From Planctomycetota bacterium (lineage in GTDB: Bacteria > Planctomycetota > UBA1135 > GCA-002686595): 64,000 nucleotides of DNA. The notes below the pieces were generated by a model that saw only the letters and a program-made list of their open reading frames with translations, searched no databases and was not told the origin of the DNA. The stretch lies in NCBI GenBank assembly GCA_040880665.1, contig JBBDIB010000061.1:24688-88687 (forward strand), given 5' to 3'. The translations under genes were made by a program, and so were the position numbers. Positions 32,232 to 51,240 of the stretch are shown piece after piece. Positions within the stretch are counted from its first letter, which is position 1, and each line of letters opens with the position of its first letter.

Positions 32232-32545
32232 CTGAGGGGCGGCAGGCTGCGTAGGATTCGGGATTGCATGAATGCTCGGCGACACACAGGACGTGCCACG
32301 GACGCTTTGCGCCATCTCTGGGTGCGGGCGCCCAACTGGGTCGGGGATCTCGTGATGGCGACGCCGGTGCTGGAGGCCTTGGTGGGGAGTTCGCGCTTCG
32401 AGCGCGTCTCGATCGGTTGCGCGCGCACTTGACCGGCGTGCTCGACCGGCTGCCGTGGGTGGATCGCGTGGTGACGTTCAAGGGTGCACGCGACGAGGTT
32501 GCGGCGCTCGGACGCGCGGCGCCGGATGGGATCTTGCGCATGGGG
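32232..32545 (+). pseudogene. Duplicated 5-prime fragment of the GT9 heptosyltransferase gene (frameshifted, truncated)
   Basis: MNARRHTGRATDALRHLWVRAPNWVGDLVMATPVLEALVGSSRFERVSIG matches the N-terminus of the intact gene at 35631. A stretch of about 115 bp is nearly identical at DNA level (32311..32425 versus 35673..35788). A 1-nt deletion follows, and homology (LPWVDRVVTFKGARDEVAALGRAAPDG) continues in another frame. The fragment ends where the low-GC DNA begins. Confidence 0.8.
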
Positions 32546-32765
32546 GCCTCTGGGAGGGATCTAGCGCGTCATCGCAGTTTTCACTGAAGGAGCCTCGCCA
32601 GGTAAAAGTTCTGTATCGAAGTGCAACCGGTTCGGCGGCTTCGCCTAGCTTAGGCTGAGATCTACTGGAACTGTGCTCGCCGTGGGCGCCAGGGCAAGTG
32701 GCTCGCTGGGTTCTTGTGTACGCTAAAATAGGTTTCGTCCTCAGTTCACCCTTTTCGGGGTTCGC

Positions 32766-34349: not shown

Positions 34350-34358
34350 GGAGACGCC

Positions 34359-35456
34359 ATGATAAGGATAGCTTATGGGCTTTGTGGCTTCGCCTCCGTA
34401 CTTTTTTGCTTGCTCTCTCTCTATGCTGAGTCGAGATGTGCTTTGCCGCAGAACGAGCCCGCCACTGGCAAGGAAGCATTTGCCTGGGAGGGTGATCGTG
34501 CGCTAAGCATAAGGATCGTATCGGACGAGCTGGACGTTTGCTTAGGGCAGATGATAACGATCAATGGAGAGCCGCTCGGCTTGCGTCCATCTCAGCAGCT
34601 AAGCCAGGAACGTGATTGCGAATGGGGAGCTCGTCACTACCTTTCTTTGTCTTCGTGTTACAGCAGTCAAAGAGACGAAGCATTTGTGGCCACGCTCTCC
34701 GGCGAAGGCTTCATACGAGATATGGAAGTTGTCGCATTGGGGCATGACAGCGCCGGCGAATGGAGTGAACGGCGAAGGTGGGGGCTAGACACAATATTCA
34801 ATAGCGCTGGTATGCCGACTCAGCCGACAAGACTCCAGGTCCTAACGGATGAATACGGCAATCCAATGCTCTTGTATGCATGCTCAACGGCCTCAATTGG
34901 GCTGCTAGATCTGTCGGAGGAGGAAAATCGTGTAAGCCATGGGGTAGAAGGCTTTCCGCGTAGCACGAGGAGGGCCTTGTGGACAACGGAAAGTTACGGC
35001 CTAGGCGTTGCTTGCTCGACCGGAATGCATGGTCTAGCGATACTTTGCAATGCCCGTGATATCTTAAGTTTACACCTCTTGCTGGGCTCCCCTAGTCTCG
35101 GATGGAGAGAGGCGAGGCTTGCCGGCGCGAATATTGACAACTTGCCCGCCAATCAAGAATCCATGAGCGCGGATGACAGTCATGTGTACTGGGTCGGATC
35201 CCGGGGGGATGCCACCGTTCAAATCATGCGCGCATCTTTGAACGTTGAGGCCGGTATTCTGTTCGGCGAGCCTCATTATGATCATTCAGTCGTTCTCCAC
35301 GAGGTGGAGTCGCTGTCGCTAGCTGCGCCAGGCACACTGCCCTCAGACTACTGGTTGGCAAGTACTTCAAGCGGAGTCCAATTGCTGACGAGAGATGGTG
35401 GCGTAGATCTGCACCTTCCTGGGAATGATGATGCTTGGGAGGTGTTGAGCGACTGA
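34359..35456 (+). CDS. Exported hypothetical protein
   Basis: 365 aa with signal peptide MIRIAYGLCGFASVLFCLLSLYA. It begins 10 bp after the preceding ORF. No family recognised. Confidence 0.45.
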   Translation: MIRIAYGLCGFASVLFCLLSLYAESRCALPQNEPATGKEAFAWEGDRALSIRIVSDELDVCLGQMITINGEPLGLRPSQQLSQERDCEWGARHYLSLSSCYSSQRDEAFVATLSGEGFIRDMEVVALGHDSAGEWSERRRWGLDTIFNSAGMPTQPTRLQVLTDEYGNPMLLYACSTASIGLLDLSEEENRVSHGVEGFPRSTRRALWTTESYGLGVACSTGMHGLAILCNARDILSLHLLLGSPSLGWREARLAGANIDNLPANQESMSADDSHVYWVGSRGDATVQIMRASLNVEAGILFGEPHYDHSVVLHEVESLSLAAPGTLPSDYWLASTSSGVQLLTRDGGVDLHLPGNDDAWEVLSD

Positions 35457-35630
35457 GCGCTTGACACCCAGACCGCCGAGGTTTGGGCGTTGAGCCTGAG
35501 GCTCCCCCCAAGTTCGGTCCAGCAGTTCCTGCGATGACGCGAGGGCGTTCGCAGCGTTCGGGTCCTTGGTGCCTTCGAAGTCGTCTCTGACATGTTGGCT
35601 ACAGGCCGACTGCGTACCATCCAGGGTCGA

Positions 35631-36683
35631 ATGAACGCCGCTCGCCATGGAAGACGTCCCGCGCACGAGTTGCGCCATCTCTGGGTGCGGGCGCCCAACT
35701 GGGTCGGGGATCTCGTCATGGCGACGCCGGTGCTGGAGGCCTTGGTGGGGAGTTCGCGCTTCGAGCGCGTCTCGATCGGGCTGCGCTCGCACTTGGCGGG
35801 CGTCGTCGAGGGGTTGCCGTGGGCCGATCGCGTGGTGACGTTCAAGGGAGCGCGCGACGAGATGGCGGCGCTCGCGCGGGCGGCGCCGGATGGGGCGCTG
35901 TTGTTGACGAACTCGTTCTCGGCGGCGCTGCGGGTCTGGCGGGCGGGCGTGCCGCTGCGTGCGGGGACGGCGCTCGGTGGACGCGGCATGTTGCTGACGC
36001 ATCGGCTGGTGCCGCCCTCGCGAGAAGGGCGCCGGGTGCCGATTCCGACGGCGCACTTGCTGGCGGATCTCGCGGGCTTGGTGGGGGTGACGGTGCCGGA
36101 TCTGGCGCCGCGGCTCGCGGCGGACGCCGGTGTGCGTGCGCGCGCGCGAGCGGTGTTGGTGGAGCACGGCGCCGCCGCCGATGCGCGCTTCGTCCTGTGC
36201 GCTCCCGGCGCCGCCTTCGGCGCGGCGAAACTGTGGCCGCCGGAGCGCTTCGCCGCCGTGCTCGATCGACTCTTCGACGAACAGGGCTGGATCGGCGTCG
36301 TGACCGGCGCGCCCAGCGAAGGACCCCAGATCGCGGCCGTCGTCGATGCGTGTCGCCATCCGGTGGTCTCGTTGGCGAAGGCCGAGCGCGACCTCGCGCT
36401 GTTGCGCGGGCTCGTCAGCGAGTGCGAGCTGCTCGTCGTCGGCGATTCCGGACCGCGTTGGTTCGCGGCGGCGTTCGACGTGCCGTGCGTCAGCATCATG
36501 GGCCCGAACTTCCCCGAGCTGACCGCCACGTCGCTCGAGCGCGCGCGCATCGTGCGGCGCGACGATCTCGAGTGCTCGCCGTGCCTGCGGCGCGTCTGCC
36601 CGCTCGAGCATCACGCCTGCATGCGCGAGATCGGCGTCGACGAGGTCGTCGCCGCGGCGCTCGACGTCGTGGGGACCCGCTGA
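35631..36683 (+). CDS. Glycosyltransferase family 9 (LPS heptosyltransferase, WaaF/WaaC-like)
   Basis: N-terminus LWVRAPNWVGDLVMATPVLEAL is the typical GT9 start. The C-terminus has a GDSGPRWFAAAFDVPCVSIMGP motif. The ATG at 35631 is supported by the duplicated copy; the ATG at 35592 is also possible. Confidence 0.85.
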   Translation: MNAARHGRRPAHELRHLWVRAPNWVGDLVMATPVLEALVGSSRFERVSIGLRSHLAGVVEGLPWADRVVTFKGARDEMAALARAAPDGALLLTNSFSAALRVWRAGVPLRAGTALGGRGMLLTHRLVPPSREGRRVPIPTAHLLADLAGLVGVTVPDLAPRLAADAGVRARARAVLVEHGAAADARFVLCAPGAAFGAAKLWPPERFAAVLDRLFDEQGWIGVVTGAPSEGPQIAAVVDACRHPVVSLAKAERDLALLRGLVSECELLVVGDSGPRWFAAAFDVPCVSIMGPNFPELTATSLERARIVRRDDLECSPCLRRVCPLEHHACMREIGVDEVVAAALDVVGTR

Positions 36684-39104: not shown

Positions 39105-39170
39105 GTTCAGCTTGTGGCGGCAGGATGGAATCGAGCAACTACGGCTCGGCTCCGGGGGGCGATTCTAGCA

Positions 39171-39229
39171 TCCAGGCCCAGATCCAGGCCCAGATCCAGG
39201 CCCAGATCCAGGCCCAGATCCAGGCCCAT
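39171..39229. repeat. 12-bp tandem repeat (tccaggcccaga), 4 perfect copies plus one 11/12 copy
   Basis: Read directly from the sequence. It lies 67-125 bp upstream of the Cys-rich protein start (minus strand). It is immediately followed on that strand by a TAGAAT hexamer (complement of attcta at 39162..39167). Confidence 0.9.
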
Positions 39230-39364: not shown

Positions 39365-40135
39365 CTACAGGCGCTCGATCGACGTTCGGTACTTGTCCGT
39401 TCGAGCCGCGTCGAGCTCGAAGGTGACGAGCTTGCCGCTCGGGACGTTGGATGCATCGACGAGCAAGCTGCCGGCGCCATCCTCGATCGTGACCACGGCT
39501 TGGCCCCAGGCGCCGTCGAGCTTGACACCGCCGCCTTCGGACTTCGCTTCGACGACGACCTCGCCGTTGTAGCTCGTGTCGAGCGCGCCCGTGACGTCGA
39601 CCACTTGGACGGCGACTTCGGCCGCGTACGGAGGAAGGTGTGTCAGGTTGCCGGGGTCGATGACGGCCGTGTTGAAGGCAGTGGGGGCAAGAAGGGTGAC
39701 GTATTCCTTGCCGTAGGTCATGTCGTAGCAAGCCGTCAGCGTGTTGCTGCACTTGCCCTCGAGCGCCGACTGTTTGAACTGAATCGTGAAGGAAGCGCCC
39801 TGCGCCGCACCCGCGAAGTCGGTAGGCAAGAGCTGCTGGTCTTCGCCTGCGCAAACGACTGTGATGGAATCGAGGGTGCCGCCTACGCGAGGAGCGAGCG
39901 GGGGATCGATCTTGCCCTGGTACGAGACGGACGGAACCGTGCCGCCGGAGGGGAAGGGCGTGGTTCCCAACGTGCCTCCGCTCGTCACCTTCCACGTACT
40001 CGTCGATGTGGCGGGCATGCCGGCCGTCGCGCTCGGCACGACGGCGAGTGCGGTCAGCACGACGGCGAGTGCGGTCAGCACGACGGAGGCCGTCGCGATG
40101 GCGACGGCAACGAACGGGACAGTGAAAAGTCGCAT
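39365..40135 (-). CDS. Secreted hypothetical protein
   Basis: 256 aa from the ATG at 40135 (MRLFTVPFVAVAIATASVV). High-GC codon usage. The signal region contains a 21-bp tandem duplication (40041..40082) encoding VVLTALA twice. The rest of ORF 39365..41086 is antisense to the crotonase gene. Confidence 0.55.
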   Translation of the reverse strand: MRLFTVPFVAVAIATASVVLTALAVVLTALAVVPSATAGMPATSTSTWKVTSGGTLGTTPFPSGGTVPSVSYQGKIDPPLAPRVGGTLDSITVVCAGEDQQLLPTDFAGAAQGASFTIQFKQSALEGKCSNTLTACYDMTYGKEYVTLLAPTAFNTAVIDPGNLTHLPPYAAEVAVQVVDVTGALDTSYNGEVVVEAKSEGGGVKLDGAWGQAVVTIEDGAGSLLVDASNVPSGKLVTFELDAARTDKYRTSIERL

Positions 40136-40366: not shown

Positions 40367-41185
40367 ATGAGCATCGCCAACGACTTCCCCGCCGACGTCC
40401 CCGACCAGCCTGAACTCGTCACCTTCGAGCGCGAAGGAGATCTGGGGTGGATCACGCTGCAACGACCGGAGGTGATGAACTGCCTCTCGTTCCCGACGCT
40501 GCGGCGCTTTCGCACGCTCTTGGAGGAGCTGCGCGAGGACCTCTCGTTGCGCGCGCTCCTGATCACCGGAGCGGGGGAGAAGGCGTTCTGCGCGGGCGCC
40601 GATCTGAAGGAGCGGCGGACGATGCCCGACGAGCGAGTGCCCGAGTTCGTGCGTCACATCCGCGGGTTGATGGACGACGTCGAAGCCATGCCGCAGCCGA
40701 CGATCGCCGTGATCAACGGCTTCGCGTTCGGCGGGGGGACCGAGCTGGCGCTGGCGTCGGACCTGCGCATCGTCGCCGAGCACGTGACGCTGGGCTTGAC
40801 CGAGGTGACGCTGGCGATCATTCCCGGCGCCGGTGGCACGCAGCGCTTGCCGCGGCTGATCGGGAAGTCGCGCGCGAAGGACTTGATCCTGACCGGGCGG
40901 CGCGTGGGCGCGGCCGAAGCCGAGGCGATCGGTCTCGCGAACCGCGTCGCGCCGGCCGCCGAGCTGCGCGCACGGGCGGCGGAACTCGGCGGCACGATCG
41001 CGGCCAACGGGCCGATCGCCGTGCGCGCCGCGAAGGACGCGATCGACCGGGGCGTCGAGCTGCCCATGGAAGCGGCGCTCGAGCACGAGGCTCGCTGCTA
41101 CCAGCGCGTGCTCGGCACCAGCGATCGCCTGGAGGCGCTCAAGGCCTTCGCCGAGAAGCGCAAGCCCGCGTTCCAGGGCGAGTAG
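40367..41185 (+). CDS. Enoyl-CoA hydratase/isomerase (crotonase) family protein
   Basis: 272 aa with FCAGADLKER and NGFAFGGGTELALASD oxyanion-hole motifs. Confidence 0.9.
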   Translation: MSIANDFPADVPDQPELVTFEREGDLGWITLQRPEVMNCLSFPTLRRFRTLLEELREDLSLRALLITGAGEKAFCAGADLKERRTMPDERVPEFVRHIRGLMDDVEAMPQPTIAVINGFAFGGGTELALASDLRIVAEHVTLGLTEVTLAIIPGAGGTQRLPRLIGKSRAKDLILTGRRVGAAEAEAIGLANRVAPAAELRARAAELGGTIAANGPIAVRAAKDAIDRGVELPMEAALEHEARCYQRVLGTSDRLEALKAFAEKRKPAFQGE

Positions 41186-41196
41186 CCCGCGGCCTC

Positions 41197-41865
41197 CTAC
41201 TCGACGAGTTCCAGCAGCTCGACGTCGAAGACCAAGGTCGCGCGCGGCGGAATCGCGCCCGGCCGGCCGCCTTCGCCGTAGGCCATGTCGAAGGGAATGA
41301 TCAGCTTGCGCTTCTCGCCGACCTGCATGTCGCCGACGCCGACGGTCCAGCCGCGGATGACGCCACTGAGCGGGAAGGTCGCGGGCTCGCCGCGGTCGTA
41401 GGAGCTGTCGAACTTGGTGCCGTCGACGAGGTAGCCGGCGTAGTGCACCTTGACCTCTGCGCTGGGACCAGCGGGCTTGGGTCCCTCGCCTTCACGCAGC
41501 GCGTAGTACGTGAGCCCGCCCTCGAGCTCCCGCGGTTCGCCTTCGACCGGCTCGCCGGGGAAGCGCGGGATGGTGCGCTTGGCATTGACGGTGCCGGCGG
41601 CCGAGATCTCGAGCTCGTAGACGTTGTCGGGCGTCGCGGTCCGGACGACCCAGGCGCCGTTCACGAGCCGCGCCTCGAAGGCGCGTCCGCTGGTGTCCTG
41701 GGCGGCGACGGCGACCGCGGCTTCGAGCGGTGTCGCCAGACCGGCGGCCGCGTAGCGCTCGGCCGGAGAGGGCGGCAACGTCTCGTAGTCACCGGGAACG
41801 AGCGTCGTGACGGCGAGCGCCGTCCCAGCGAGGCCGACGACTAGCGGAAGGGCTTTCAGGAGCAT
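41197..41865 (-). CDS. FKBP-type peptidyl-prolyl cis-trans isomerase (secreted/periplasmic)
   Basis: 222 aa from the ATG at 41865, with a signal peptide ([18 protein letters not shown]). C-terminal FKBP domain ([60 protein letters not shown]). Confidence 0.88.
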
Positions 41866-42097
41866 GGGATCACGTGGGATAGGTCGGAAGGGAGGTCCGC
41901 AGCGTAAGGACGTGAGCGCCGCCCGCGCTACCCTTAGAAGTGGCTTCGGCAGCAGGGAACCGAGGCATTGTGTCTCAAGCGCCGTGCCTTCTCCGTCGAT
42001 GCTCTCGGGCAGCACTCTTGGCGAGCGTCGCCCCGGCCAGCCCCGTGCCACGAATCCGTACTCGCCGGCTCGCCAGACGCTACTCTCACGCCAATCG

Positions 42098-43234
42098 ATG
42101 TCCGGTTTCCCGACAGCCAACTTCTCCGATTCCGCCCAAGGTCTCTTCACCGCGGACGAGATCCGCGGCTTGATGCGCGTCGAGTACGAACGCGCCGCGC
42201 GCTACCACTACCCGGTGGCGTTGATGATCATCGACGTCGACCGGATCGAGTACCTGCACGACCTCTATGGCTACGAGTCGAAGGAGGAGATCCTGCAGGC
42301 CGTGATCGGACTCCTGCGCGCGGTGACGCGCGCCAGCGACTTCTTGGGCTGCATGCACGAGGGTCGGCTGATGGCGCTGTTCCCGCACACCTCGCAAGCC
42401 GCGGCGGGCGCCCTGGCCGATCGCCTCCTGTCGGGCAGCCGGCGCCTCAAGTTCGAGAGTGGCAGCCGCACGCTGAGAACGACGTTGTCGATCGGACTGG
42501 CCGTCGCCGCCGAGGATCCGCATTTGTGGTTGGACTTCGTGCAGGCGGCGGACGACGCCCTGGCCTACGCGATCGAGGGCGGTGGCGACCGCTACGTCCA
42601 GCGCGAAGGAGCGGTGGAAATGCTGGGCCGCCTGCGGACCGACCTCGAGGCCGAGGAGCTGGCGCTCGAGCGTGAGCACACGCGCCTCGACGGGTTGCGC
42701 TCGGCGCTGCCGAGCCGCGACGCGGCGCCGAGTGCGCACACGATCACGCCACCGAGCGCGCGCGATCTCGCCCCAGGAATGGTGCCCGGCGCCCGGCCCG
42801 CTGGACAGGGCAACGTGCTCGACCCGCGGGATCGCGAGCGCTTCATGCAGCTCGTCGGCCCCGTGTTCCAGGAACTCGGCGAGCGGACGCCCAAGATCCG
42901 AGCGGCGATGGAGCGCGCGGTCGACCTCTTGATCAAGACCGTGGAGCGCACCCGCCGCGAGACGCTCGACAGCCAGGCCGCCAAGGGCGCGGACACGGTC
43001 GAACTGCTCGAGCGCCGGGTCGCGAAGCTCAAGGAAGCACTGACGGCGGCCGAAGCCGAGATCGGGCGCGTCGCCGCGCTCAAGGCGATGGATCCGGGCC
43101 TCGCGTCCGTCTATCGCTCGGTCCAGGGTCTCGACGAAGGCGCGCAGGACGTCTCGCGGAAGCGCGAGATGCTTGCGGTGTTGTTCGAGGCCAACGTCAA
43201 GCTCCGCGACGAAATCGACAAGCAGAAGCAGTAG
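42098..43234 (+). CDS. Degenerate GGDEF-domain protein with C-terminal coiled coil
   Basis: 378 aa from the ATG at 42098. GGDEF-fold signature [29 protein letters not shown]...[16 protein letters not shown]...SIGLAV...[17 protein letters not shown]. The GG(D/E)EF motif is replaced by MHEGR and the GHxxGD loop is also lost. The C-terminal ~200 aa are heptad-like and charged. Confidence 0.7.
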
Positions 43235-43267
43235 CCATCCTGGCTATCAATCCCCAACATCCCAGCG

Positions 43268-44329
43268 ATGAGCGAACAAGCATCAGCGGCGGAAGCCGCC
43301 AAGGAGCAGGGCGTCCTGTACCTCGGCATCGACCTCGGAACCTCGCGGACCTCGGTGTCCGCCTCGAACGGAGTCCGAGAGACCGTCGCTTCCTACGTGG
43401 GCTATCCGAAGGACGTCGTCAGTCGCAAGTTGCTCCAGAAGGACGTTCTGTTCGGTGAGGAGGCCGTCAAGCACCGCCTCTCGCTCAACTTCTACCGGCC
43501 GCTCGAGCACGGCGTGATCAAGGGCTCGGACGGCAGCGGGGACAAGGCCGAGAACGAGCGCGCGGCCCAGGACTTGATCGCCGAGATCATTCGCAAGGCG
43601 CGGCCGCGCAAGGACGAGCTGGTCTACGCGGTGATCGGCGCGCCGGCTCAGGCGTCGATCACGAACAAGGAGGCGATCCTGGAAGCCGCGCGTGAAACCG
43701 TCGACTCGGTGATGCTCTGTTCGGAGCCCTTCGCGGTCGCCTACGGGCTCGACATGCTCGACGACGTCCTGGTCATCGACATCGGCGCGGGCACCACCGA
43801 TCTCTGCCGGATGCACGGCACGATGCCCGAGGACTCCGACCAGATCACGATCACCTACGCGGGTGATCACGTGGACGCCGAGTTGGCGCGCAGCGTGCGC
43901 CGCAACTTTCCCGAAGCGCAGTTCAGCGACCAAATGATCAAGACGCTGAAGGAGCGCTACGCCTCGGTCTCCGACGGCATGGCCCGGGTCGACTTCGAGT
44001 TCCCCGTCAAGGGCAAGCCGACGAAGTTCGACGTGACGGACCCGTTGCGCGACAGTTGCCGCAGCATCATCGATCCGATCGTGGAAGGCCTGGGCGAGCT
44101 GATCTCGACCTTCGATCCCGAGTTCCAACAACGCCTGAAGGATCGCGTGTTGCTCGCCGGCGGCGGCTCGCAGATTCGCGAACTCGACAGCGAGATCGAG
44201 AAGCGCATGCACGCGCTGCTCGGCGGGGGCAAGGTCGTGCGCATCGAAGAGCCCATCTACGGCGGCTCGAACGGCGCCCTCAAGATCGCCCACGACATGC
44301 CCGCCGACTACTGGGAACGCCTTAAGTGA
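43268..44329 (+). CDS. MamK-family bacterial actin-like protein
   Basis: 353 aa. Actin-fold motifs LGIDLGTSRTS (phosphate 1), VGYPKDV, VIGAPAQAS, SEPFAVAYGL, IDIGAGTTDL (phosphate 2) and LAGGGSQIREL (adenosine). The C-terminal PADYWERL closely tracks MamK (recalled: LGIDLGTSHT, VGYPKDV, VIGVPA, SEPFMVGYG, VDIGAGTTD, PPQYWRQL). Confidence 0.8.
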   Translation: MSEQASAAEAAKEQGVLYLGIDLGTSRTSVSASNGVRETVASYVGYPKDVVSRKLLQKDVLFGEEAVKHRLSLNFYRPLEHGVIKGSDGSGDKAENERAAQDLIAEIIRKARPRKDELVYAVIGAPAQASITNKEAILEAARETVDSVMLCSEPFAVAYGLDMLDDVLVIDIGAGTTDLCRMHGTMPEDSDQITITYAGDHVDAELARSVRRNFPEAQFSDQMIKTLKERYASVSDGMARVDFEFPVKGKPTKFDVTDPLRDSCRSIIDPIVEGLGELISTFDPEFQQRLKDRVLLAGGGSQIRELDSEIEKRMHALLGGGKVVRIEEPIYGGSNGALKIAHDMPADYWERLK

Positions 44330-44340
44330 TGGCGCGCTAG

Positions 44341-45108
44341 ATGAACGAGCGCGTCACGCTGCGCGCCGAGTTCGCCGGTTCGCGCAACGCCACCTTGGCC
44401 GCCCGTTTGGATCTCCCGTCCGCGGACGCGCGGGCCTACGCGGTGTTCGCGCACTGCTTCACGTGCTCGAAGGACCTGCAGGCCGCTTCGCGGATCGCGC
44501 GCGGCCTCTCGGAGCGCGGGATCGGCGTGCTGCGCTTCGACTTCACGGGCCTTGGGCACTCCGGCGGGGAGTTCGCCAGCACGAACTTCTCCTCCAACGT
44601 GGAGGACCTCGTGGCTGCCTGCGACTGGTTGCGAAGCGAGCACGGGGCACCCAGCCTACTCGTCGGTCACAGTCTGGGCGGCGCGGCGGTCCTGGCCGGC
44701 GCGGCGAGCGTCCCCGAGGTGCGCGCGGTCGCGACGATCGGCGCGCCCGCGGATCCAGCGCACGTCGCGCACTTGATCGCGTCCGCGACCGAAGAGATCG
44801 AAGTTCGGGGCGAGGCGCGCGTCGCGATCGGCGGGCGCGAGTTCACGGTGCGGAAGCAGTTCTTGGACGACCTCACCGAACAACGGCATCGCGAACGCAT
44901 TCGCGACCTCGGGCGCGCGCTCTTGATCCTGCACTCGCCCGACGATCGCACGGTGCCGATCGAGGAGGCCGCACGAATCTACGGGGCGGCGCGCCATCCC
45001 AAATCGTTCGTGAGCCTCGATGGGGCCGATCACCTCCTGACGGCTGAACGCGACGCGGTCTTCGTGGCCGACCTCTTGGCGGTCTGGGCGTTGCGCTACG
45101 TGATCTGA
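44341..45108 (+). CDS. Alpha/beta hydrolase
   Basis: 255 aa with nucleophile elbow GHSLGG and C-terminal DGADHLL (His). It resembles the hydrolase half of bifunctional hydrolase/OsmC proteins. Confidence 0.75.
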   Translation: MNERVTLRAEFAGSRNATLAARLDLPSADARAYAVFAHCFTCSKDLQAASRIARGLSERGIGVLRFDFTGLGHSGGEFASTNFSSNVEDLVAACDWLRSEHGAPSLLVGHSLGGAAVLAGAASVPEVRAVATIGAPADPAHVAHLIASATEEIEVRGEARVAIGGREFTVRKQFLDDLTEQRHRERIRDLGRALLILHSPDDRTVPIEEAARIYGAARHPKSFVSLDGADHLLTAERDAVFVADLLAVWALRYVI

Positions 45109-45173
45109 GCCGCCACGGCGGTAGTTCGCGGTTCCGAGTCGCTTCCGTCGTCCCGCTGCGCTACGACACGCCG

Positions 45174-47039
45174 GTGGAGCCCAAGCGCACGGAACGATCG
45201 CTCGGACGCGGCTGGGGCCTCGTCGGGCTCGTCGCGCTGGTTCTCGCGTCGACAGCGTTTCGCGTGCAGCGCGCGTGGGCCGACCCCGCGTTCGAACGGT
45301 TCGCCAGCGCTCCCGCCGACACGCACCTCTGGAAGAGCGACCCCGCGTTGCTCGCGTACTTCGTCGAGCGCATCGCGGATGCGGGCGGCGGCGTGCCGGA
45401 CGACTGGCGCGCCGATCCGCGCGTCGGTCATCCGGCGGGCGCCGACGTTCCGGTGGAGTTCACCGTGGCGCAGGAGTGGCCCGTCGCATGGGCTTGGCTC
45501 GCCGTCGGACGTGACGTGCCGCTCGAGATCGTTGCGTTGATCACGTCGTCGCTGCTCGCGAGCCTCGCACTCTTGGGCGCGGCGTGGGCGGTGCTGACCT
45601 GGACGCGCTCATGGGGCTGGGCGCTGTTCGCGGCGGCGCTCTTCGTGCTGTTGCCGGCGAACCAGCGCACGTTGGGTTTTCTTTTGATGCGCGAGGACCT
45701 GGCGTGGCCGCTCTTTGCGTTGCACTTCGGCGCGTTGGCGGCGGCGCTCTCAACGCGCCGCGCGCGCGAAGCCATCGTGGCGGGCGTGTTGCTCGCCGGC
45801 GCGCTCGCGACCTGGCACGCGAGCCGTGGCTTCTGGGCGCTTGAGCTGGTCGTGTTGGCGGGCGTGTTCCTCGTGCGCGGCGCGCCTGCGCGCCGCGTGG
45901 CGTGGACGTTGGTCTTCGTGCCAGCGCTCTGGCTCGTACCGGCCCTGGCCGCGGGCGAGCGCGAGTGGGGCGCGCTGGTGGCGTCCGTCGCGCTGGCCCT
46001 GAGCGGCTTCGTCCCGGGTCTCGAGACGTGGCGCCGGCGTCTCGTCGCGCTGGTCGCCGTCGGCGCCTGCGTCGCGGCGGCTGCGGCCCTCGCCAGCTTC
46101 GGCGACGCGCCCGCCGGCGCATCGTTCGAGCACGTGAGCGCGGTGCTGCGCGCGAAGCTCGCGCACTTCGGCCAGCGTCCGAGCGACCCGGCGCTGGTTC
46201 CCTTCGAGGCGCGCTTGCTGTGGCAGGGACCGTTCGAGAGCGTGCCCCTCGGCGCGCTGGTCCGATCGCTGGGGCTCGCGGCGTCGCTGGCGCTCGTGGC
46301 CTTGGCCGCAAGGTGTTGGCGCCAGCGGTGCGCGCCGCGGCGCGATCTGGTGCTCGGTGCCGCGGTCCTTTTCGGCGCGCTCTTCACCGCACACCTGATC
46401 GGTCGCACGGTGCTCTTGGCGGCGTGGCTCGTGCCGGTGGCGACGACGATCCTGCTGGCGCGGAGCGGCGCACGACGTCGCGACGCGGCGGTGCTCCTCG
46501 GCGCCCAGGTCGTCGCGTTCGCGCTCTGGTCGCAAGGGCTCTTCCTGTCGTGGTACCTGCCCGCTGGGAAGCCGCTCGAGTACGCGCGCCTGTTCGAGTG
46601 GGTGGCGGCGAACGTGCCGCCGGACGCCGCCGTCGCTTCGGACTTCGTGAACGCGACCGCGCTGCTCCAGGCGACCGGGAACCCGATCGTCCTGCACCCG
46701 AAGTACGAGACCAAGAAGAGCCGCCGAGCCGCGGAGGAGTTCTTCCAGGCGTTCTACGCGGGCACGCCCGCCGAACTCGCCGTCTGGTGTCGCCGCCAGG
46801 GCGTCGAGCACCTCTGGATCGATCGCTACGTGCTGGGCTTCGTCGCGCCGTGGGTCGGCGGCGTGCCCGAGGGAGCGGCGTTCCCCCCCGAGAGCGCCGC
46901 GGCGCTCTTCCTGAGCCAGGACCAGCGCGTGCTCGAGAGCGTCGCGGGCTTCGAGCTCCTCTACCGCAGTCCGCCCTCGATCACCCAGCAAAACGGCGCG
47001 CCCTACGACCTCTTTCGCTGGTACCGCCTGACGCCGTGA
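45174..47039 (+). CDS. Polytopic membrane protein, possible GT-C fold glycosyltransferase (STT3/PMT-like topology)
   Basis: 621 aa with more than 10 predicted TM helices followed by a soluble C-terminal domain of about 170 aa. The first loop has an SDPALLAYF-like acidic motif. No WWDxG motif was seen. The assignment rests on architecture only. Confidence 0.4.
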   Translation: MEPKRTERSLGRGWGLVGLVALVLASTAFRVQRAWADPAFERFASAPADTHLWKSDPALLAYFVERIADAGGGVPDDWRADPRVGHPAGADVPVEFTVAQEWPVAWAWLAVGRDVPLEIVALITSSLLASLALLGAAWAVLTWTRSWGWALFAAALFVLLPANQRTLGFLLMREDLAWPLFALHFGALAAALSTRRAREAIVAGVLLAGALATWHASRGFWALELVVLAGVFLVRGAPARRVAWTLVFVPALWLVPALAAGEREWGALVASVALALSGFVPGLETWRRRLVALVAVGACVAAAAALASFGDAPAGASFEHVSAVLRAKLAHFGQRPSDPALVPFEARLLWQGPFESVPLGALVRSLGLAASLALVALAARCWRQRCAPRRDLVLGAAVLFGALFTAHLIGRTVLLAAWLVPVATTILLARSGARRRDAAVLLGAQVVAFALWSQGLFLSWYLPAGKPLEYARLFEWVAANVPPDAAVASDFVNATALLQATGNPIVLHPKYETKKSRRAAEEFFQAFYAGTPAELAVWCRRQGVEHLWIDRYVLGFVAPWVGGVPEGAAFPPESAAALFLSQDQRVLESVAGFELLYRSPPSITQQNGAPYDLFRWYRLTP

Positions 47040-47042
47040 GCT

Positions 47043-47480
47043 TCAGCCGCGCTGGTACCAGCGCTCGGTCTCTTCGGCGATGCGCTCGACCTCGTCGGCG
47101 GGCGTCAGCTCGCCCTGGCCGATGCCGGGGCAGCACTCCTGGACCGGGCCCTCCCAGGTGTCGCGGTCGAGGTTCTCCTCCCAGAAGGGCCAGGTCGCAC
47201 ACTGCTTCGGCCGGACGGGATAGATCGTGCAGCGCTTCTGTTCGTCGAGGAAGGGGCAGGTCTCGCCCTCGATCGCGAGGCTCGTCCAGCCGCCATCCTT
47301 GACGGTGTGTTGGCGCCGGAACTCGCGCTTGGTCAGGCCCAGGAAGTCGGCGATGTTCGTCACGTCCTGCTTGGAGAGATAGACGTAGGCGTACTCGCCG
47401 TGGTTCGTGCAGCAGCGGCCGCACTGGGTGCACGAGAAGCGCAGACCCTCGGCGTACCAGCGATCGTCGGGCAAGCTCAT
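47043..47480 (-). CDS. YkgJ-family (UPF0153) cysteine-cluster protein
   Basis: 145 aa from the ATG at 47480. It has CTQCGRCC plus CPFL...C...C...CC motifs characteristic of the family. Confidence 0.8.
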   Translation of the reverse strand: MSLPDDRWYAEGLRFSCTQCGRCCTNHGEYAYVYLSKQDVTNIADFLGLTKREFRRQHTVKDGGWTSLAIEGETCPFLDEQKRCTIYPVRPKQCATWPFWEENLDRDTWEGPVQECCPGIGQGELTPADEVERIAEETERWYQRG

Positions 47481-47587
47481 CCGGAACAGGATAGCCACCG
47501 TGGGGAGGCGCCCGTCGCGATCTTTCGCTAGGTGTGCGGAAATGCGCCGTTCGGTTCGGGCTACCCTCTGGCTGTGCGAAACCACAC

Positions 47588-49573
47588 ATGCCGCCCAAGA
47601 AAATCGTCGTCGTCGAGGACGGGGTCCGCCAGACCCTCGAGTTCGCAGCCCCTTTGATCAAGGTCGGGCGCGCCGTGGACAACCACGTGCAGCTCAGGAG
47701 CGCGCACTCGTCGCGCCACCACTGCCAGATCGAGGTGCAGGGCGAGGACGCTTGGGTCGTGGATCTCGACAGCGCCAACGGGACGCTCTGGAACGGCGAG
47801 CGCATCGTGCGTTCGCCGCTGGCGCGCGGGGACGTGCTGGCGATCGGCGAGGCGCGGATCGAGTGGCTGGGCGAGGCGCGCGGCAGCGCCGACGACGCGC
47901 TGCGCACGATCCAGGCCGAGGATGCGGCCGAACGCGACGAGGTGGTCGTCTTCGCTCGCATCGCGCGCGCCCTGCTCGAGGAGAACGAGCTCGACCCGCT
48001 CTTGCGCCTGATCGTCGACAGCGCCGTGCTGTTGGTCGGCGGCGAGCGCGGCTTCCTGCTGCTCTTCGACACCGACGCGGCTCCGAAGGAGGACCTCGGC
48101 CGCATCCGCGTCCGCGTCGCGCGCTCGTTCGACCGCACGGACATTCCGTTGCCGTCGTCGCGCCTCTCGATGGGCATCGCTCGGCAGGCGGTGCGCGAGC
48201 GGCAAGCGGTGCTCTCCGTCGACGCCGGTCGCGACGAACGCTTCGAGGGCATGGCCAGCGTCGAGGGTCTCAAGTTGCGCTCGGTCGTGTGCTTGCCGAT
48301 CGATCTCGACGGCAAGATCGCGGGCGTGCTGTACGTCGACAACCGTCTGCAAGAGGGCGTGTTCGGCGAGGAGGACCAGCGTCGCCTCGGACTCTTGGCC
48401 GATCTCGCCGCCAGCGCGATCCGCAACGCGCGCTGGGTCGCCGAGCTGCGCGAGAAGAACGAACGCTTGATCGGTTCCAGCCAGAAGATCCAACGCTTGA
48501 ACGAAGAGCTGGGGCGCAAGGTGCGCGACCAGGGCAGCGAGCTGGCGGTCGTGCGCGCCGAGCTGGGGCGCGAGCGGGGGCGTTACGACTACTCGCAGAT
48601 CGTTGGCTCGTCCGACGCGATGCGCAAGGTCTTCGCCGAGTTGGATCGCACCGTCGAGGCGGAACTGCCCGTCCTGATCCAGGGCGAGAGCGGCACGGGG
48701 AAGGAGCTGATCGCGCGCGCCATCCACTTCAACGGCTCGCGGAAGGCCAAACCGTTCGTCGCCGAGAACTGCGCGGCGTTGCCCGACACGTTGCTCGAGT
48801 CCGAGTTGTTCGGTCACGCCCGCGGGGCGTTCACCGGCGCCGATCGCGCGAAGAAGGGCCTGATCGAGCAAGCGACGGGCGGCACGTTGTTCTTGGACGA
48901 GATCGGCGACATGAGCTCCGCGATGCAGAAGAACCTCTTGCGCGTGCTACAGGAGGGCGAGCTGCGTCCCTTGGGTTCCAGCCAGCGCGTGCAGGTCGAC
49001 GTGCGCTTGGTCGCCGCGTCGAATCGCGACCTGGCCGAGATGGTCAAGCGCGGCGAGTTCCGCGAGGACCTCTACTATCGCATCAACGTCTTAACCCTGA
49101 AGCTGCCGCCGTTGCGCGAGCGTCGCGACGACGTGCCGCTGCTCGCCGAGGCGCTCTTGAACCGGGCCGCGCGCGACTCGGGGCGTCCGGCGCCGGCTTT
49201 GTCGCACGAGGTGCTTGCGCAGCTCGCGGAGTACGACTGGCCTGGCAACGTGCGCGAGTTGGAGAACGAAGCCCGGCGCCTGATCCTGGCCGCGGTCGAC
49301 GTCGTGCGACTCGAACATCTCTCCGAGCCGATCCGCCAGGCGGGCGCGGCGTCGACGTTGACCACGGCATCGCTGGCCCTCGTCGGCAGCCTGCCGGAGG
49401 CGGTGGCATCGTTCGAGCGGAAGGCGCTGCGCGACGCCTTGACCCAGAACGAAGGCAACAAGAGCCGTGCCGCGAAGGACCTCGGTATCAGCCGCTTCGC
49501 CCTGCAACGCAAGCTCGACAAGTACGAGATCGACGAGGAGGCTGCGCGCAACCCGGGCTCGAGCGGGCGGTAA
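47588..49573 (+). CDS. Sigma54-dependent transcriptional activator with N-terminal FHA and GAF domains
   Basis: 661 aa from the ATG at 47588. FHA (IKVGRAVDNHVQLRSAHSSRHHCQIEV...DLDSANGTLWNGERI), a GAF-like middle region, AAA+ (GESGTGKE, ELFGHARGAFTGA, FLDEIGD) and a C-terminal Fis-type HTH (NKSRAAKDLGISRFALQRKL). Confidence 0.9.
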   Translation: MPPKKIVVVEDGVRQTLEFAAPLIKVGRAVDNHVQLRSAHSSRHHCQIEVQGEDAWVVDLDSANGTLWNGERIVRSPLARGDVLAIGEARIEWLGEARGSADDALRTIQAEDAAERDEVVVFARIARALLEENELDPLLRLIVDSAVLLVGGERGFLLLFDTDAAPKEDLGRIRVRVARSFDRTDIPLPSSRLSMGIARQAVRERQAVLSVDAGRDERFEGMASVEGLKLRSVVCLPIDLDGKIAGVLYVDNRLQEGVFGEEDQRRLGLLADLAASAIRNARWVAELREKNERLIGSSQKIQRLNEELGRKVRDQGSELAVVRAELGRERGRYDYSQIVGSSDAMRKVFAELDRTVEAELPVLIQGESGTGKELIARAIHFNGSRKAKPFVAENCAALPDTLLESELFGHARGAFTGADRAKKGLIEQATGGTLFLDEIGDMSSAMQKNLLRVLQEGELRPLGSSQRVQVDVRLVAASNRDLAEMVKRGEFREDLYYRINVLTLKLPPLRERRDDVPLLAEALLNRAARDSGRPAPALSHEVLAQLAEYDWPGNVRELENEARRLILAAVDVVRLEHLSEPIRQAGAASTLTTASLALVGSLPEAVASFERKALRDALTQNEGNKSRAAKDLGISRFALQRKLDKYEIDEEAARNPGSSGR

Positions 49574-49657
49574 GCTCATCCCCTGGTGCGCGGCGTAGCG
49601 TCGCGGGCCCGCTTCGCCGAGACTAGCCAGCGCTCCTTCGACCCGCCTTTCTCTTCG

Positions 49658-51238
49658 ATGCGCCTCTTCGTCCTTCTTCTCGCCTGCTTGTTCCTCGTCG
49701 TCGGCTCCGCCTTCGCCGACATCCTCGTCCACAAGGACGGTCGTCGTATCGAGGGTCAGGTCGTTCGTCGAACGGCCAGCGAAGTCGTCTTCAAGACGAA
49801 GTTCGCGACGCTGACCTTTCCGGTCAAGGACGTGCTCGAGATCGTCGAGCAAAAGACGCGCGAACAGGAGCATGCCGAACGCCTCGCCGCCGCGCAGACG
49901 GCCGAGGACTTCTATCGACTGGCGCTCTGGTGCGAGGAGCACAAGTTCCGCCGCCGGACGCGCGAGTATCACGAACGCGCGCTCGAACTCGACCCCGACC
50001 ACGCCGGCGCGAACGTCGCCCTGGGCCGCGTGCAGTACAAGGGCGTTTGGATGACGCCCGCGGAGCGCGACGCACGACAGCTCGCCGAGCAAGAGGCCGA
50101 AATGCGTGAGCGCGGCCTGGTTCAGTACGAAGGGCGTTGGGTTACGCCGGAGGAGCGAGCCAAGCTCGAGCGCGGACTGGTCGAGCACCAAGGCCGCTGG
50201 GTCACGCTGGCGGAAGCGATGCGCTTGAAGGGGCTCGTCGAGTTCGAGGGCGGGTGGATACCGGCGGTCGAGGGTTACGCGCGTCGCGACCTCGCCGCGA
50301 TGAGCAAGTTGGCGGGCATCGAGCTCGGCGTTGCGTTCGGCACCGACGTGATGGTGGCGGGCGACGCCGACGTGCCGGCGCTGGAGGCGATCGCGCAGCG
50401 CGCCGATCGGGCGCGGCGGTGGTTCGGTGAGAAGTGGAGCGTCGAGCCGGGGCTCGAGCTGTTCGGTGGACGTCTCGCCGAGCTGTACGCGTTCGTGGAC
50501 GACGCGCTCTACGATCGGACGATCGCGCACACGGTCGAGCGCTCGCGCTGGATCCCGGAAGGCTGGGGCGCGGCCGTCGCCAAGCGCTACGGGTACACCT
50601 GGGTGGATCCCGTGCGGCTCAGCGGCGCGACGCTCCGCAACCGACCGGACAGCCACCTGGACGGGACGTGCTTCCACAACTTCGGCCACTTGATGGCGAT
50701 CAGCATCGGCTACGACGGGCGGAACCTGCCCGCCTGGTACGAGGAGGGCGTCGCGTGCCTGATCGAGTCGGTCGCGCACGGCCAGAACACGGTGTTCTGT
50801 CGGGCCACGTCCGCTACGGGCCTCGGCTCGAGCTCCGGCAGCAAGCATCGGCCCGTCTTCGACGACAAGGCGATGCGCGACGACGGCTGGCGCGCCCGGC
50901 TCGCGGCGGAACTCGCCCAGGGCGGCATCGAACCCTTCGACGCGCTCGCACGGCGCGAGTTCCACGAGCTCGCGTTGATCGACATCGCCACCTCGCGCGC
51001 GATCCTCGAGTGGCTGCTGAGCCGCGAGCCCGGCGCGCTGGCCAAGTTCCACGCCGTTCTGCGCCACCACGCACCGGCGCAGCCGGCGCGCGTGATCCTG
51101 GCCGGTCGCGATCGCCACGCTTGCTACGACGCAGCGTTCGGCGCCGCCGTCGGGATGAACCACCGCCGCGCCGATGCGGAGTGGCGACGCTGGTTCAGAG
51201 CGGAAGGACTCGCAGGAGGCGCCGCGACCGAGCGCTAG
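49658..51238 (+). CDS. Secreted protein with short GRWVT repeats and a DUF1570-like domain lacking the HExxH glutamate
   Basis: 526 aa from the ATG at 49658 with signal peptide MRLFVLLLACLFLVVGSAFA. Repeats are GLVQYEGRWVTPEE, GLVEHQGRWVTLAE and GLVEFEGGWIP. FHNFGHL...AWYEEGVACLIES resembles the HExxH...W.EG.A motif of MA-clan/DUF1570 peptidase-like proteins, with Asn in place of Glu. Confidence 0.55.
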   Translation: MRLFVLLLACLFLVVGSAFADILVHKDGRRIEGQVVRRTASEVVFKTKFATLTFPVKDVLEIVEQKTREQEHAERLAAAQTAEDFYRLALWCEEHKFRRRTREYHERALELDPDHAGANVALGRVQYKGVWMTPAERDARQLAEQEAEMRERGLVQYEGRWVTPEERAKLERGLVEHQGRWVTLAEAMRLKGLVEFEGGWIPAVEGYARRDLAAMSKLAGIELGVAFGTDVMVAGDADVPALEAIAQRADRARRWFGEKWSVEPGLELFGGRLAELYAFVDDALYDRTIAHTVERSRWIPEGWGAAVAKRYGYTWVDPVRLSGATLRNRPDSHLDGTCFHNFGHLMAISIGYDGRNLPAWYEEGVACLIESVAHGQNTVFCRATSATGLGSSSGSKHRPVFDDKAMRDDGWRARLAAELAQGGIEPFDALARREFHELALIDIATSRAILEWLLSREPGALAKFHAVLRHHAPAQPARVILAGRDRHACYDAAFGAAVGMNHRRADAEWRRWFRAEGLAGGAATER

Positions 51239-51240
51239 GC

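Follow-up and report, generated by a model that had tools for sequence, protein, structure and literature searches.

A protein with a conserved C-terminal module encoded directly upstream of saltatorellin, a candidate adaptor for a bacterial actin of Planctomycetota

Results

A gene pair and its surroundings

The window, the whole 64-kb stretch of Planctomycetota DNA analyzed here, carries on its forward strand a gene for a 378-aa protein, hereafter the partner (42098..43234, +), followed by a gene for a 353-aa MamK-like actin with intact ATPase motifs (43268..44329, +). Translation of the partner from the ATG at 42098 and an independent gene call gave the identical 378-aa product. The two co-oriented genes are separated by 33 bp (43235..43267, +) without a terminator, an operon-like junction, and both the lengths and the spacing agreed with an earlier annotation of this DNA (the original prediction). 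According to the gene calls, a 232-bp intergenic segment (41866..42097, +), presumably the promoter region of the two-gene cassette, separates the partner gene from a divergent FKBP gene (41197..41865, −). No sigma-70 consensus, no iterated centromere-like repeats and no Rfam match, riboswitch search included, were found in this segment, and the searches for promoters, terminators, riboswitches and centromere repeats around the cassette returned nothing above chance.

An alpha/beta hydrolase gene (44341..45108, +; Pfam) starts 11 bp after the actin gene and is followed by a gene for a Dpy19-like polytopic (GT-C-like) membrane protein (45174..47039, +; Pfam Dpy19, 33.7 bits, cut-off 27.2), both expected from the original prediction. 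Among 80 related loci, the hydrolase gene adjoined the actin gene only in the window contig (L001), and its sole other match, at L028, lay some 5 kb past the actin gene on the downstream side. The Dpy19-like gene was found elsewhere only in the closest subclade (L002, L003, L008, L011, L023, L030, L039 and L040). A wider operon including these two genes was therefore rejected: only the window has the hydrolase as a neighbor of the actin, and the gene for the Dpy19-like protein is confined to about eight close loci. Loci of the Saltatorellus ferox type carry flippase, UbiA and PMT_2 genes upstream and a DUF3810 gene downstream.

The actin belongs to the saltatorellin family

The 353-aa protein contained all the motifs that had been quoted for it (VGYPKDV, VIGAPAQAS, SEPFAVAYGL, IDIGAGTTDL and PADYWERL). 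Its ATPase motif residues are D22/G24/T25, E153, D171/G173/G175 and G298-G300, and the nucleotide-binding residues were invariant in 18 relatives. MamK was the best-matching family, with a score just above the cut-off of the NCBIfam model NF040964 (412.5 bits, cut-off 400), whereas the scores against the HMMs for BeeR (204 bits, cut-off 530), MreB (72 bits, cut-off 293, and 60 bits, cut-off 366) and ParM (21.8 bits, cut-off 417) all fell below the respective cut-offs. The best solved structure was also a MamK (5jyg, E = 2e-77). These scores and the structural match bear out the proposed kinship with MamK rather than with MreB or ParM, and BeeR is likewise more distant.

Identity to MamK of AMB-1 was 37–42% across the family, which formed a separate clade on a long branch. 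Over residues 2–353, the window actin was 71% identical to a protein of S. ferox Poly30 (NZ_CP036434.1, L066), and both fell within one tight clade of a neighbor-joining tree whose support was not assessed. The termini of the Poly30 protein, MTDITTD...YWEQLK, are those encoded by the cloning primers in the preprint that describes saltatorellin (Wiegand et al. 2019, bioRxiv 10.1101/817700). According to that work, the protein assembles into filaments when produced in E. coli or M. gryphiswaldense. Judged by its sequence, the window actin is a saltatorellin, of a family already described in shape-shifting Planctomycetota. The original prediction had presented it as an unrecognized “orphan MamK”; this part did not survive, since the protein is 71% identical to the filament-forming saltatorellin of Poly30 and belongs to a named family (10.1101/817700); relatives already carry the NCBI label “MamK family actin-like protein”. 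The window actin is a putative filament former, given the behavior of the Poly30 protein and its own intact ATPase and polymerization motifs.

An ordinary MamK paralogue acting on magnetosomes, with the magnetosome cluster encoded elsewhere in the genome, would also pass the NCBIfam MamK model and find its closest solved structure in MamK, and our inspection of this genome spanned 64 kb. However, the Pfam scan of 38 proteins of the window returned no mam-like domain, as had been anticipated, and the magnetosome gene cluster that accompanies a functional MamK was absent from the 64 kb. No recurrent neighbor at more than 80 related loci was recognizable as a mam gene, these neighbor clusters being without domain annotation. 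Of the 539 actin relatives detected in species genomes, the best 80 were labelled as Planctomycetota or as unclassified, save one mislabelled bin, and the MamK-like protein of cultured S. ferox was treated as non-magnetosome (10.1101/817700). Together with the long branch and the low identity to MamK of AMB-1, these observations make a magnetosome role extremely improbable.

The partner has a degenerate GGDEF domain with a retained inhibitory site

The partner consists of a degenerate GGDEF domain, a helix, a Pro-rich linker and a conserved C-terminal module. The GGDEF-fold domain (aa 19–168; 42152..42601, +) was recognized by Pfam (E = 4.9e-16, 59.4 bits against a cut-off of 23.8) and modeled by AlphaFold2 mostly at pLDDT >90, and Foldseek superimposed the predicted fold on the GGDEF domains of DosC, PleD and WspR with TM scores of 0.83–0.88. 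The signature GG(D/E)EF is replaced, as proposed, although the replacement is not MHEGR: alignment to 3ign, a c-di-GMP-bound GGDEF domain that served as reference, and the family column counts placed HEGRL (aa 87–91; 42356..42370, +) at this position. The family consensus there is x[DE]DR[LIV], with GG in 0 of 111 sequences, and the N, K and R residues that contact the substrate are also replaced in the window domain by the same alignment. With both its signature and its substrate contacts altered, the domain lacks the sequence hallmarks of an active diguanylate cyclase and, as far as sequence tells, is unable to make c-di-GMP, which upholds the earlier description of a catalytically dead GGDEF fold.

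In contrast to the active site, the primary inhibitory site is intact. An RxxD motif, R78-A-S-D81 (42329..42340, +), lies five residues before the degenerate signature and aligns with RQSD of 3ign, and R109 (42422..42424, +), 18 residues past the signature, is equivalent to the second arginine of this site, R390 in PleD. Partners fall into five types, A to E, that differ in their N-termini, the window protein being of type A. Among the 94 sequences outside type B, R78 and D81 were each kept in 93 and R109 in no fewer than 91, and R109 was invariant in 65 type-A relatives. In the 17 paralogous type-B partners the triad was largely lost as a whole: 11 had F for R78, only 4 kept D81, and 10 had E or A in place of R109. 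The window domain combines the RxxD motif with the second arginine, the sequence mark of degenerate GGDEF domains that act as c-di-GMP receptors. Because the R78/D81/R109 triad is kept, the domain is most likely a c-di-GMP receptor, a prediction that narrows the earlier proposal of a “c-di-GMP/GTP receptor” to its first half, the active-site residues required on the GTP side being lost. The original prediction made no mention of the intact RxxD site.

The C-terminal half of the partner had been described as a long charged coiled coil. It is helical in the AlphaFold2 model (helices 172–203, 243–258, 265–328, 334–342 and 352–377) but is not one continuous coiled coil. A Pro-rich linker of about 40 residues (aa 204–242; 42707..42823, +), disordered with pLDDT about 47–51 and devoid of secondary structure, interrupts it, and clean heptads, four in number, occur only at aa 301–328. 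When the predicted helices were each tested for heptads, none reached significance, and the “long coiled coil” was dropped in favor of a helical region with one zipper.

A conserved C-terminal module with exchangeable N-terminal domains

Conservation in 78 partners delimited a C-terminal module of about 75 residues (aa 299–373; 42992..43216, +) made of three parts: a four-heptad zipper, LERRVAKL..L..(T/A)E.E; a loop, D.G.AS.YR.VQGL, in which G.AS.YR.VQGL is invariant; and a terminal helix, K..M...FEAN. The loop was modeled with low confidence in the monomer (pLDDT about 61). The invariant residues reside in the loop rather than in the heptad core, an arrangement that would be typical of a binding motif. 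No Pfam family covers the module, and a Foldseek search of the PDB found no matching fold at E ≤ 10. A full HMM search detected the module in about 965 protein clusters at 50% identity, suggesting an unannotated protein family of roughly 800–1000 clusters; a word-index search with the module profile had returned mostly short fragments, and the length range could be obtained only by the full HMM search. Among the matches listed, the module was C-terminal in all but one (P0413) of 150 clusters. No fusion of the module to an actin was found, the longest module proteins and the tailed one (P0413, P0339 and P0355) having no actin part.

The region preceding the module varies while the module stays constant. 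It may be a dead GGDEF domain, a divergent GGDEF domain, a degenerate P-loop domain, an unknown helical domain, or nothing, the module-only partners being 154–160 aa long. Of the 106 representatives that were 230 aa or longer, Pfam assigned GGDEF to 39 and GGDEF_2 to 8, and the majority had no Pfam match. Types were assigned by HMM coordinates, which replaced a clustering of N-termini that had merged types through shared linker helices. Thus, the GGDEF domain, part of the adaptor proposed in the original prediction, is one interchangeable N-terminus, and the element conserved with the actin is the module. Partners of types B, C, D and E lack the inhibitory site, and control by c-di-GMP therefore cannot be a general function of the cassette.

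The partner might instead be a co-expressed scaffold or regulator that builds its own coiled-coil assembly or acts on another target, while the actin shares its pathway but does not touch it. Synteny alone cannot tell direct binding from a shared pathway, the first helix of the module is a zipper that could merely self-associate, and fusions that would tie the module physically to the actin were not seen. On the other side, the module remains invariant and keeps its place just 5′ to the actin gene in all five N-terminal architectures, down to proteins that consist of the module only, and its invariant residues lie outside the heptads through which it could self-associate. The simplest explanation for this constancy is a direct, actin-specific role of the module, and we consider an independent scaffold unlikely.

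Linkage of the partner and actin genes across genomes

At all 79 loci that could be tested, as well as in the window contig and at 3 further loci, the actin gene was immediately preceded by a co-oriented module gene, and no other neighbor was conserved across the cassette loci. The pairing that the original prediction depended on is thus conserved. Relative to the literature searched, the partner family is new, whereas the actin itself is already known. Actin and module distances were correlated (Mantel r = 0.48, reached in 0 of 2000 permutations). Any two tightly linked genes would be expected to show strict synteny and correlated distances, however, and neither proves binding. Identity between actin paralogues was 73–74% between partner types versus 75–77% within a type, the neighbor-joining actin tree, with support not assessed, followed the partner types only roughly, and no type-specific divergence of either actin or module was detectable; co-evolution of actin and module beyond their shared history is therefore unsupported. 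Genomes with two typed cassettes always carried two different partner types, with the A and B combination in 11 genomes.

An actin gene next to a small and fast-evolving partner recalls the ParM/ParR, AlfA/AlfB and Alp7A/Alp7R pairs and raises the possibility of a ParMRC-like cassette, in which the actin would push DNA and the upstream protein would be its centromere-binding adaptor. ParM/ParR and AlfA/AlfB are two-gene operons of a cytomotive actin and a small, dedicated, fast-evolving adaptor, and the cassette follows the same two-gene logic. Its gene order is reversed, however, with the partner gene preceding the actin gene instead of following it, Pfam detected neither an HTH nor an RHH domain in the partner family, and the segment upstream of the cassette is free of iterated repeats. 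The loci are chromosomal and lie in varied housekeeping contexts, the longest contig reaching 7.7 Mb, some genomes carry two cassettes with different N-terminal domains, and the ParM score of the actin is far below its cut-off. A role in DNA segregation is accordingly very improbable.

The neighbors also bear on a morphogenetic role resembling that of MreB, in which the cassette would position the envelope machinery for glycans or lipid-linked sugars rather than drive shape-shifting. GT-C-type membrane proteins recur beside the cassettes, as with the Dpy19-like gene downstream in the window subclade, and the S. ferox-type loci have the flippase, UbiA, PMT_2 and DUF3810 genes noted above. Nevertheless, none of these neighbors accompanies the cassette in all its types, the two GT-C proteins lack close homology to each other, and Saltatorellota encode a canonical MreB as well (10.1101/817700). 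Such a role would be compatible with the adaptor mechanism set out below, but we regard it as quite unlikely.

Discussion

The reading that we favor, and judge moderately likely, is that of a two-gene cassette in which a modular adaptor serves a saltatorellin filament, engaging it through the C-terminal module and sensing c-di-GMP with the GGDEF domain. Saltatorellin would be a MamK-like, ATP-hydrolyzing and filament-forming actin that works outside magnetosomes in the Saltatorellus/Planctomycetota lineage, and the product of the upstream gene would be an adaptor with a module of about 75 residues dedicated to this actin. The four-heptad zipper may dimerize the partner, and the G.AS.YR.VQGL loop and the FEAN end of the last helix may contact a saltatorellin monomer or the filament, so that filaments would be nucleated, bundled, capped or anchored. 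The N-terminal domain would be an exchangeable input or docking domain, and the GGDEF domain of the window partner would couple the c-di-GMP level to filament behavior. Binding of the partner to the actin, c-di-GMP binding and the existence of a cellular cargo are what we infer from the architecture. A broader reading, which we hold tentatively and think somewhat doubtful, is that the module represents an unrecognized bacterial actin-binding domain that plugs interchangeable sensor or docking domains (c-di-GMP-receptor GGDEF, degenerate P-loop and others) into saltatorellin filaments.

Saltatorellin is so far the sole candidate for the motor with which a walled bacterium changes shape and moves in an amoeba-like manner. 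The partner that is always encoded upstream provides the first experimental handle on it, through a short invariant module with exchangeable inputs. The type-B paralogue is a natural negative control for the predicted c-di-GMP switch, and the module-only proteins offer a further test set. If the c-di-GMP link is true, the main lifestyle messenger of bacteria would be tied directly to an actin filament system; in the literature searched, neither saltatorellin nor any MamK-like actin was connected with GGDEF or c-di-GMP. Should the module prove to be an actin-binding domain, wall-bearing and shape-shifting Planctomycetota would possess an actin cytoskeleton controlled by a second messenger, and the partners would parallel, in prokaryotes, the modular actin regulators that eukaryotes build around short binding motifs.

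PopA and PelD are degenerate-GGDEF receptors of c-di-GMP that keep the RxxD motif and the second inhibitory-site arginine. The window partner likewise has a dead GGDEF fold with the inhibitory site, its c-di-GMP binding being predicted; it differs in its output, a C-terminal actin-linked module instead of a receiver, membrane or GAF context. The cassette is set apart from ParM/ParR and AlfA/AlfB by the lack of a DNA-binding domain and of centromere repeats and by its chromosomal, housekeeping setting.

The window actin shares all the ATPase motifs with MamK of Magnetospirillum (5jyg, 5ljv and 5ljw), the catalytic glutamate E143 of MamK corresponding to E153, but at about 40% identity it belongs to a separate clade and lacks the magnetosome gene context. 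The known partners of MamK are MamJ and the Mad coiled-coil proteins (PMC12748827). BeeR of Verrucomicrobiota, which forms three-stranded tubular filaments (8r2n, PMC11929497), is also a MamK-related actin of the PVC group from non-magnetotactic bacteria. Its hallmark is an N-terminal domain of about 35 aa that is disordered, whereas in the window actin only about 14 residues precede the first phosphate loop, and no partner has been reported for BeeR, in contrast to the conserved upstream partner of the window actin.

The closest comparison is with saltatorellin of S. ferox, which is of the same family and length class as the window actin and has the same C-terminal Y-W-E-x-L-K ending. The preprint describing it makes no mention of a neighboring gene, GGDEF, c-di-GMP or a coiled coil (10.1101/817700). 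In S. ferox, too, a module-bearing gene immediately precedes that for the actin. The adjacent partner there is a short module-only protein, whereas that of the window carries a GGDEF domain with the inhibitory site kept; a type-A gene joining GGDEF to the module is located 5 kb downstream of the S. ferox actin gene.

The window encodes a saltatorellin-type actin

The gene encoding the GGDEF-like partner (42098..43234, plus strand, 378 aa) and the actin-like gene (43268..44329, plus strand, 353 aa) lie at exactly the originally predicted positions, 33 bp apart. This spacing is operon-like, and no terminator or RNA element was found between the two genes, which form one unit. When genes were called independently on another assembly of this contig, both products were unchanged and the divergent FKBP gene came out at 222 aa, excluding an overlap with the partner start. 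Every actin motif quoted in the original prediction was present in the 353-aa protein, and the phosphate-binding, catalytic (E153) and adenosine motifs were invariant in a comparison of 18 relatives.

Pfam recognized only the generic MreB_Mbl/Actin fold in this protein. The NCBIfam MamK model scored 412.5 bits against a cut-off of 400, compared with 204 bits for BeeR (cut-off 530), 60–72 bits for MreB (cut-offs 293–366) and 22 bits for ParM (cut-off 417). MamK 5jyg was the top solved structure (E = 2e-77), followed by 8r2n, which we take to be BeeR (E = 8e-36), and MreB (E = 5e-12). A search of 5.8 billion proteins revealed thousands of relatives; the best 120 showed 71–86% identity each, and the named ones among them came from Planctomycetota MAGs under the labels “MamK family actin-like protein” (NCBI) or “MreB” (JGI). 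Scanning one genome per species yielded 539 relatives, the best 80 of which belonged to Planctomycetota MAGs and the complete Saltatorellus ferox Poly30 chromosome, whose protein is 71% identical to the window actin. The S. ferox product starts with MTDITTD and ends with YWEQLK, matching the cloning primers for “saltatorellin” (bioRxiv 10.1101/817700). The name was coined by Wiegand et al. 2019 and used again in a 2024 paper; the former study placed this MamK-like actin beside MamK in a large tree of actins, observed filament formation both in E. coli and in M. gryphiswaldense deleted for mamK, and put the protein forward as the driver of shape-shifting (bioRxiv 10.1101/817700). In our NJ tree, a long branch separated the family, itself a tight clade, from MamK of AMB-1 (37–42% identity). 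This clade and the Poly30 match identified the presumed “orphan MamK-family actin” as a member of a family already described: the MamK-family assignment stood, the notion of an unrecognized orphan did not, and the window actin is, as judged by sequence, a saltatorellin. One 3.3-kb contig carrying the cassette (the partner gene plus the actin gene) came from a MAG labeled Candidatus Paceibacteria (L078, JBLIMI010000532.1); it is probably a mis-binned Planctomycetota contig, because its actin is 69% identical to that of the window.

A Pfam scan of 38 proteins across the 64-kb window detected no cation-efflux (MamB/M-like), LemA (MamQ-like) or trypsin/PDZ (MamE/O-like) protein, which upheld the claim that no mam gene is recognizable there. 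None of the recurrent neighbor clusters in related loci, which lack domain annotation, was recognizable as a mam gene. The window actin is MamK-family by the NCBI model, not by context, and, judged from the 64-kb window and the related loci, the cassette is not a magnetosome system.

The partner gene is strictly linked to the actin gene

Conservation of the predicted gene pair was assessed with a partner-family HMM run on six-frame ORFs of 80 genome loci. In 77 of them, a match on the actin strand directly preceded the actin gene. Two of the three apparent exceptions had the tail of the C-terminal module of the partner at a contig edge and the third had only ~20 nt of upstream sequence, leaving the partner directly upstream in 79/79 testable loci. 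No other conserved neighbor emerged from the neighbor clusters of related loci. The predicted downstream genes are present, the alpha/beta hydrolase adjoining the actin gene in this window only and the GT-C-like (Dpy19-like) protein recurring, together with a CxxCxxCC protein and a sigma-54 activator, only in ~8 of the closest loci. In these closest relatives (L002, L003, L008, L011, L023, L030, L039 and L040), the block at 40367-49573 of the window recurs in the order enoyl-CoA hydratase, FKBP, partner, actin, Dpy19-like, CxxCxxCC and sigma-54 activator with FHA and GAF domains; this activator could be a regulator of the cassette. Actin and module distances (the module being the conserved C-terminal part of the partner) were correlated (Mantel r = 0.48, reached by 0/2000 permutations), a correlation that linkage by itself would be expected to produce; no co-divergence of actin and module specific to partner type was detectable.

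An invariant C-terminal module carries exchangeable N-terminal domains

Partner HMM scores were tiered, with the lower tier matching the C-terminal part of the model only. When the C-terminal 150 residues of 78 partners were aligned, a shared core emerged, LERR(I/V).KL...L..TE.EL.R.A..K..D.G.AS.YR.VQGL.......K.EM...FEAN(L/V).L, which corresponds to about aa 299–373 of the window partner. It comprises four clean heptads (V301, L304, V308, L311, L315, A318, I322, V325), an invariant loop and a terminal helix, and was modeled by AlphaFold2 as a helix, a ~22-aa loop and a helix. The degenerate GGDEF domain of the original prediction was borne out and its long coiled coil was not, clean heptads being confined to aa 301–328. 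The module matched no Pfam family and no PDB fold. In a full HMM search covering 1.84 billion cluster representatives, the module was present in 965 (817 of them at E ≤ 1e-10). Among the 150 listed, in proteins of 90–507 aa, it formed the extreme C-terminus except in P0413, which has a Pro/Ala-rich tail. All named matches were from Planctomycetota except one bin labeled Candidatus Paceibacteria, probably mis-binned, and the longest module proteins included no actin-module fusion. It is this short, invariant module at the C-terminus of the partner that is tied to the actin gene.

The N-terminal domains are exchangeable. A degenerate GGDEF domain characterizes type A, that of the window (35 loci), and, in a more divergent form, type B (~20 loci). 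The N-terminal region of type C (12 loci) has no Pfam match, linker helices alone being in common. Type D (L037, L059 and L080) has a ParA/MinD-like domain with the Walker A lysine replaced in a degenerate P-loop, SAE.RAG(N/T)(T/S), and all three partners lie directly upstream of the actin gene; Pfam ParA matched one of two scanned proteins at 4e-5, below the cut-off. Besides GGDEF, this is a second degenerate nucleotide-binding domain recruited to the module. Type E consists of module-only proteins of 154–160 aa, and three module-only proteins on long contigs are directly upstream of an actin-like gene. Among representatives of at least 230 aa (n = 106), Pfam assigned GGDEF to 39 and GGDEF_2 to 8, the majority having no match. 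Two cassettes are found in many MAGs, and where both were typed the types always differed (A+B in 11 genomes, C+D in 1, C+A in 1).

In S. ferox, the saltatorellin gene is directly preceded by the gene of a short module-only partner, and a type-A GGDEF-module gene, beside no actin gene, lies ~5 kb downstream in the same locus. This locus (L066, NZ_CP036434.1 3642769-3659824) encodes a flippase, UbiA, PMT_2 (GT-C), the short partner and saltatorellin, then a DUF3810-like HExxH protein, a 1201-aa protein homologous to an L082 protein annotated DUF7133/HEAT/cytochrome c, and the type-A gene; in the L064 locus the genes are ordered likewise, the large protein being absent.

The GGDEF domain is degenerate with an intact inhibitory site

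The AlphaFold2 model of the window partner had a mean pLDDT of 83, exceeding 90 over most of aa 19–168, and Foldseek matched it to the GGDEF domains of DosC, V. cholerae and FimX (TM 0.83–0.88) as well as to PleD and WspR. Alignment to 3ign, a c-di-GMP-bound GGDEF structure, placed HEGRL at the GGEEF position, confirming the predicted loss of the active-site motif, and RASD at the RQSD inhibitory site. A 10-aa partner segment lay opposite DIDHFKPVND, indicating that other residues replace the substrate-contacting Lys and Asn. In 111 family members, the signature column is x[DE]DR[LIV] and GG occurs in none; on these residues, the partner-family GGDEF proteins cannot be cyclases, and the domain belongs to the fold, not to the enzymes.

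R78, D81 and R109, which we equate with R359, D362 and R390 of PleD, followed a pattern unlike that of the catalytic residues; R109 aligned to the Arg 18 residues past GGEEF in 3ign. In the 94 non-type-B sequences, R78 and D81 were each kept in 93 and R109 in at least 91. In type B (n = 17), R78 was changed to F in 11, D81 was kept in 4 and R109 was changed to E or A in 10, the three residues being lost together for the most part. Preservation as a set in one paralogue class, with loss as a set in the other, is expected of a working ligand site, and lends sequence-level support, not proof, to c-di-GMP binding. The GGDEF domain of the window partner is dead, and its inhibitory site is intact.

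A putative adaptor for saltatorellin filaments

In active cyclases, c-di-GMP at the inhibitory site cross-links GGDEF domains. The module may be the actin-directed part of the partner: its zipper would dimerize the protein, its loop and last helix would bind actin, and the N-terminal domain would provide input or docking. In the window partner, c-di-GMP at the inhibitory site might then alter how the dimer engages saltatorellin filaments. We lean slightly towards this adaptor model as a whole, hold a functional partnership of the two proteins with greater confidence, and regard direct binding to actin and c-di-GMP sensing more tentatively than the whole. GT-C-type membrane proteins recur near cassettes (Dpy19-like in the window; in S. 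ferox-type loci, PMT_2 alongside UbiA and a flippase); since they are not conserved across types, a link to envelope glycans is only a lead.

As a putative actin-plus-adaptor pair, the cassette resembles ParM/ParR and MamK with MamJ or Mad coiled-coil proteins (PMC12748827). A partition system was rejected, given no DNA-binding domain, no repeats and failure of the ParM HMM. By its sequence features, the window GGDEF domain fits with PopA, PelD and other inhibitory-site receptors. The partner gene is mentioned neither in the saltatorellin preprint (bioRxiv 10.1101/817700) nor in the BeeR paper, and our literature search returned nothing relevant on degenerate GGDEF proteins linked to bacterial actins. 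The original observation (ORFs, motifs, positions) held, and its interpretation did so in part: the actin family was already known, and the new, useful part is a strictly conserved modular partner with an unannotated C-terminal module.

Other features of the window

A defense-type island on the minus strand (2819-13896) encodes a type I restriction-modification system (HsdR 2819-6037, HsdS 11109-12317, HsdM 12301-13896) enclosing an AbiEii/AbiEi toxin-antitoxin pair (6004-7532), a C-5 cytosine (Dcm) methylase (7937-9043) and a 690-aa HATPase_c_3 protein (9040-11112); GC falls to 0.60 at 8–12 kb versus ~0.68 elsewhere. An arsenic-resistance-like cluster (24575-28338, minus strand) comprises an ACR3/SBF transporter, a tandem Usp protein and a two-domain ArsA ATPase. 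Low-GC stretches (0.57–0.58) at 32000-36000 and 22000-24000 may be acquired DNA; Pfam matched neither ORF 32766-34349 nor ORF 34359-35456, and CarboxypepD_reg is the sole Pfam domain of ORF 22366-24408. The window also encodes MlaD, a PfkB kinase, glutamate dehydrogenase, two GT9 heptosyltransferases, a WbsX glycosyltransferase, phosphatidylserine decarboxylase and a GlmU-like enzyme, in addition to the enoyl-CoA hydratase, FKBP and FHA/GAF sigma-54 activator of the recurrent block. Between two minus-strand ORFs lies a perfect tandem repeat of the 12-nt unit ATCCAGGCCCAG (39170-39228, 4.9 copies), and a 21-nt repeat (2.8 copies, 40029-40086) within an ORF codes for a repeated hydrophobic segment. 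A 550-aa protein with no Pfam match (49586-51238, plus strand) is followed by a large Ser/Thr kinase of ~1130 aa with a long non-kinase C-terminal region (51190-54591, plus strand).
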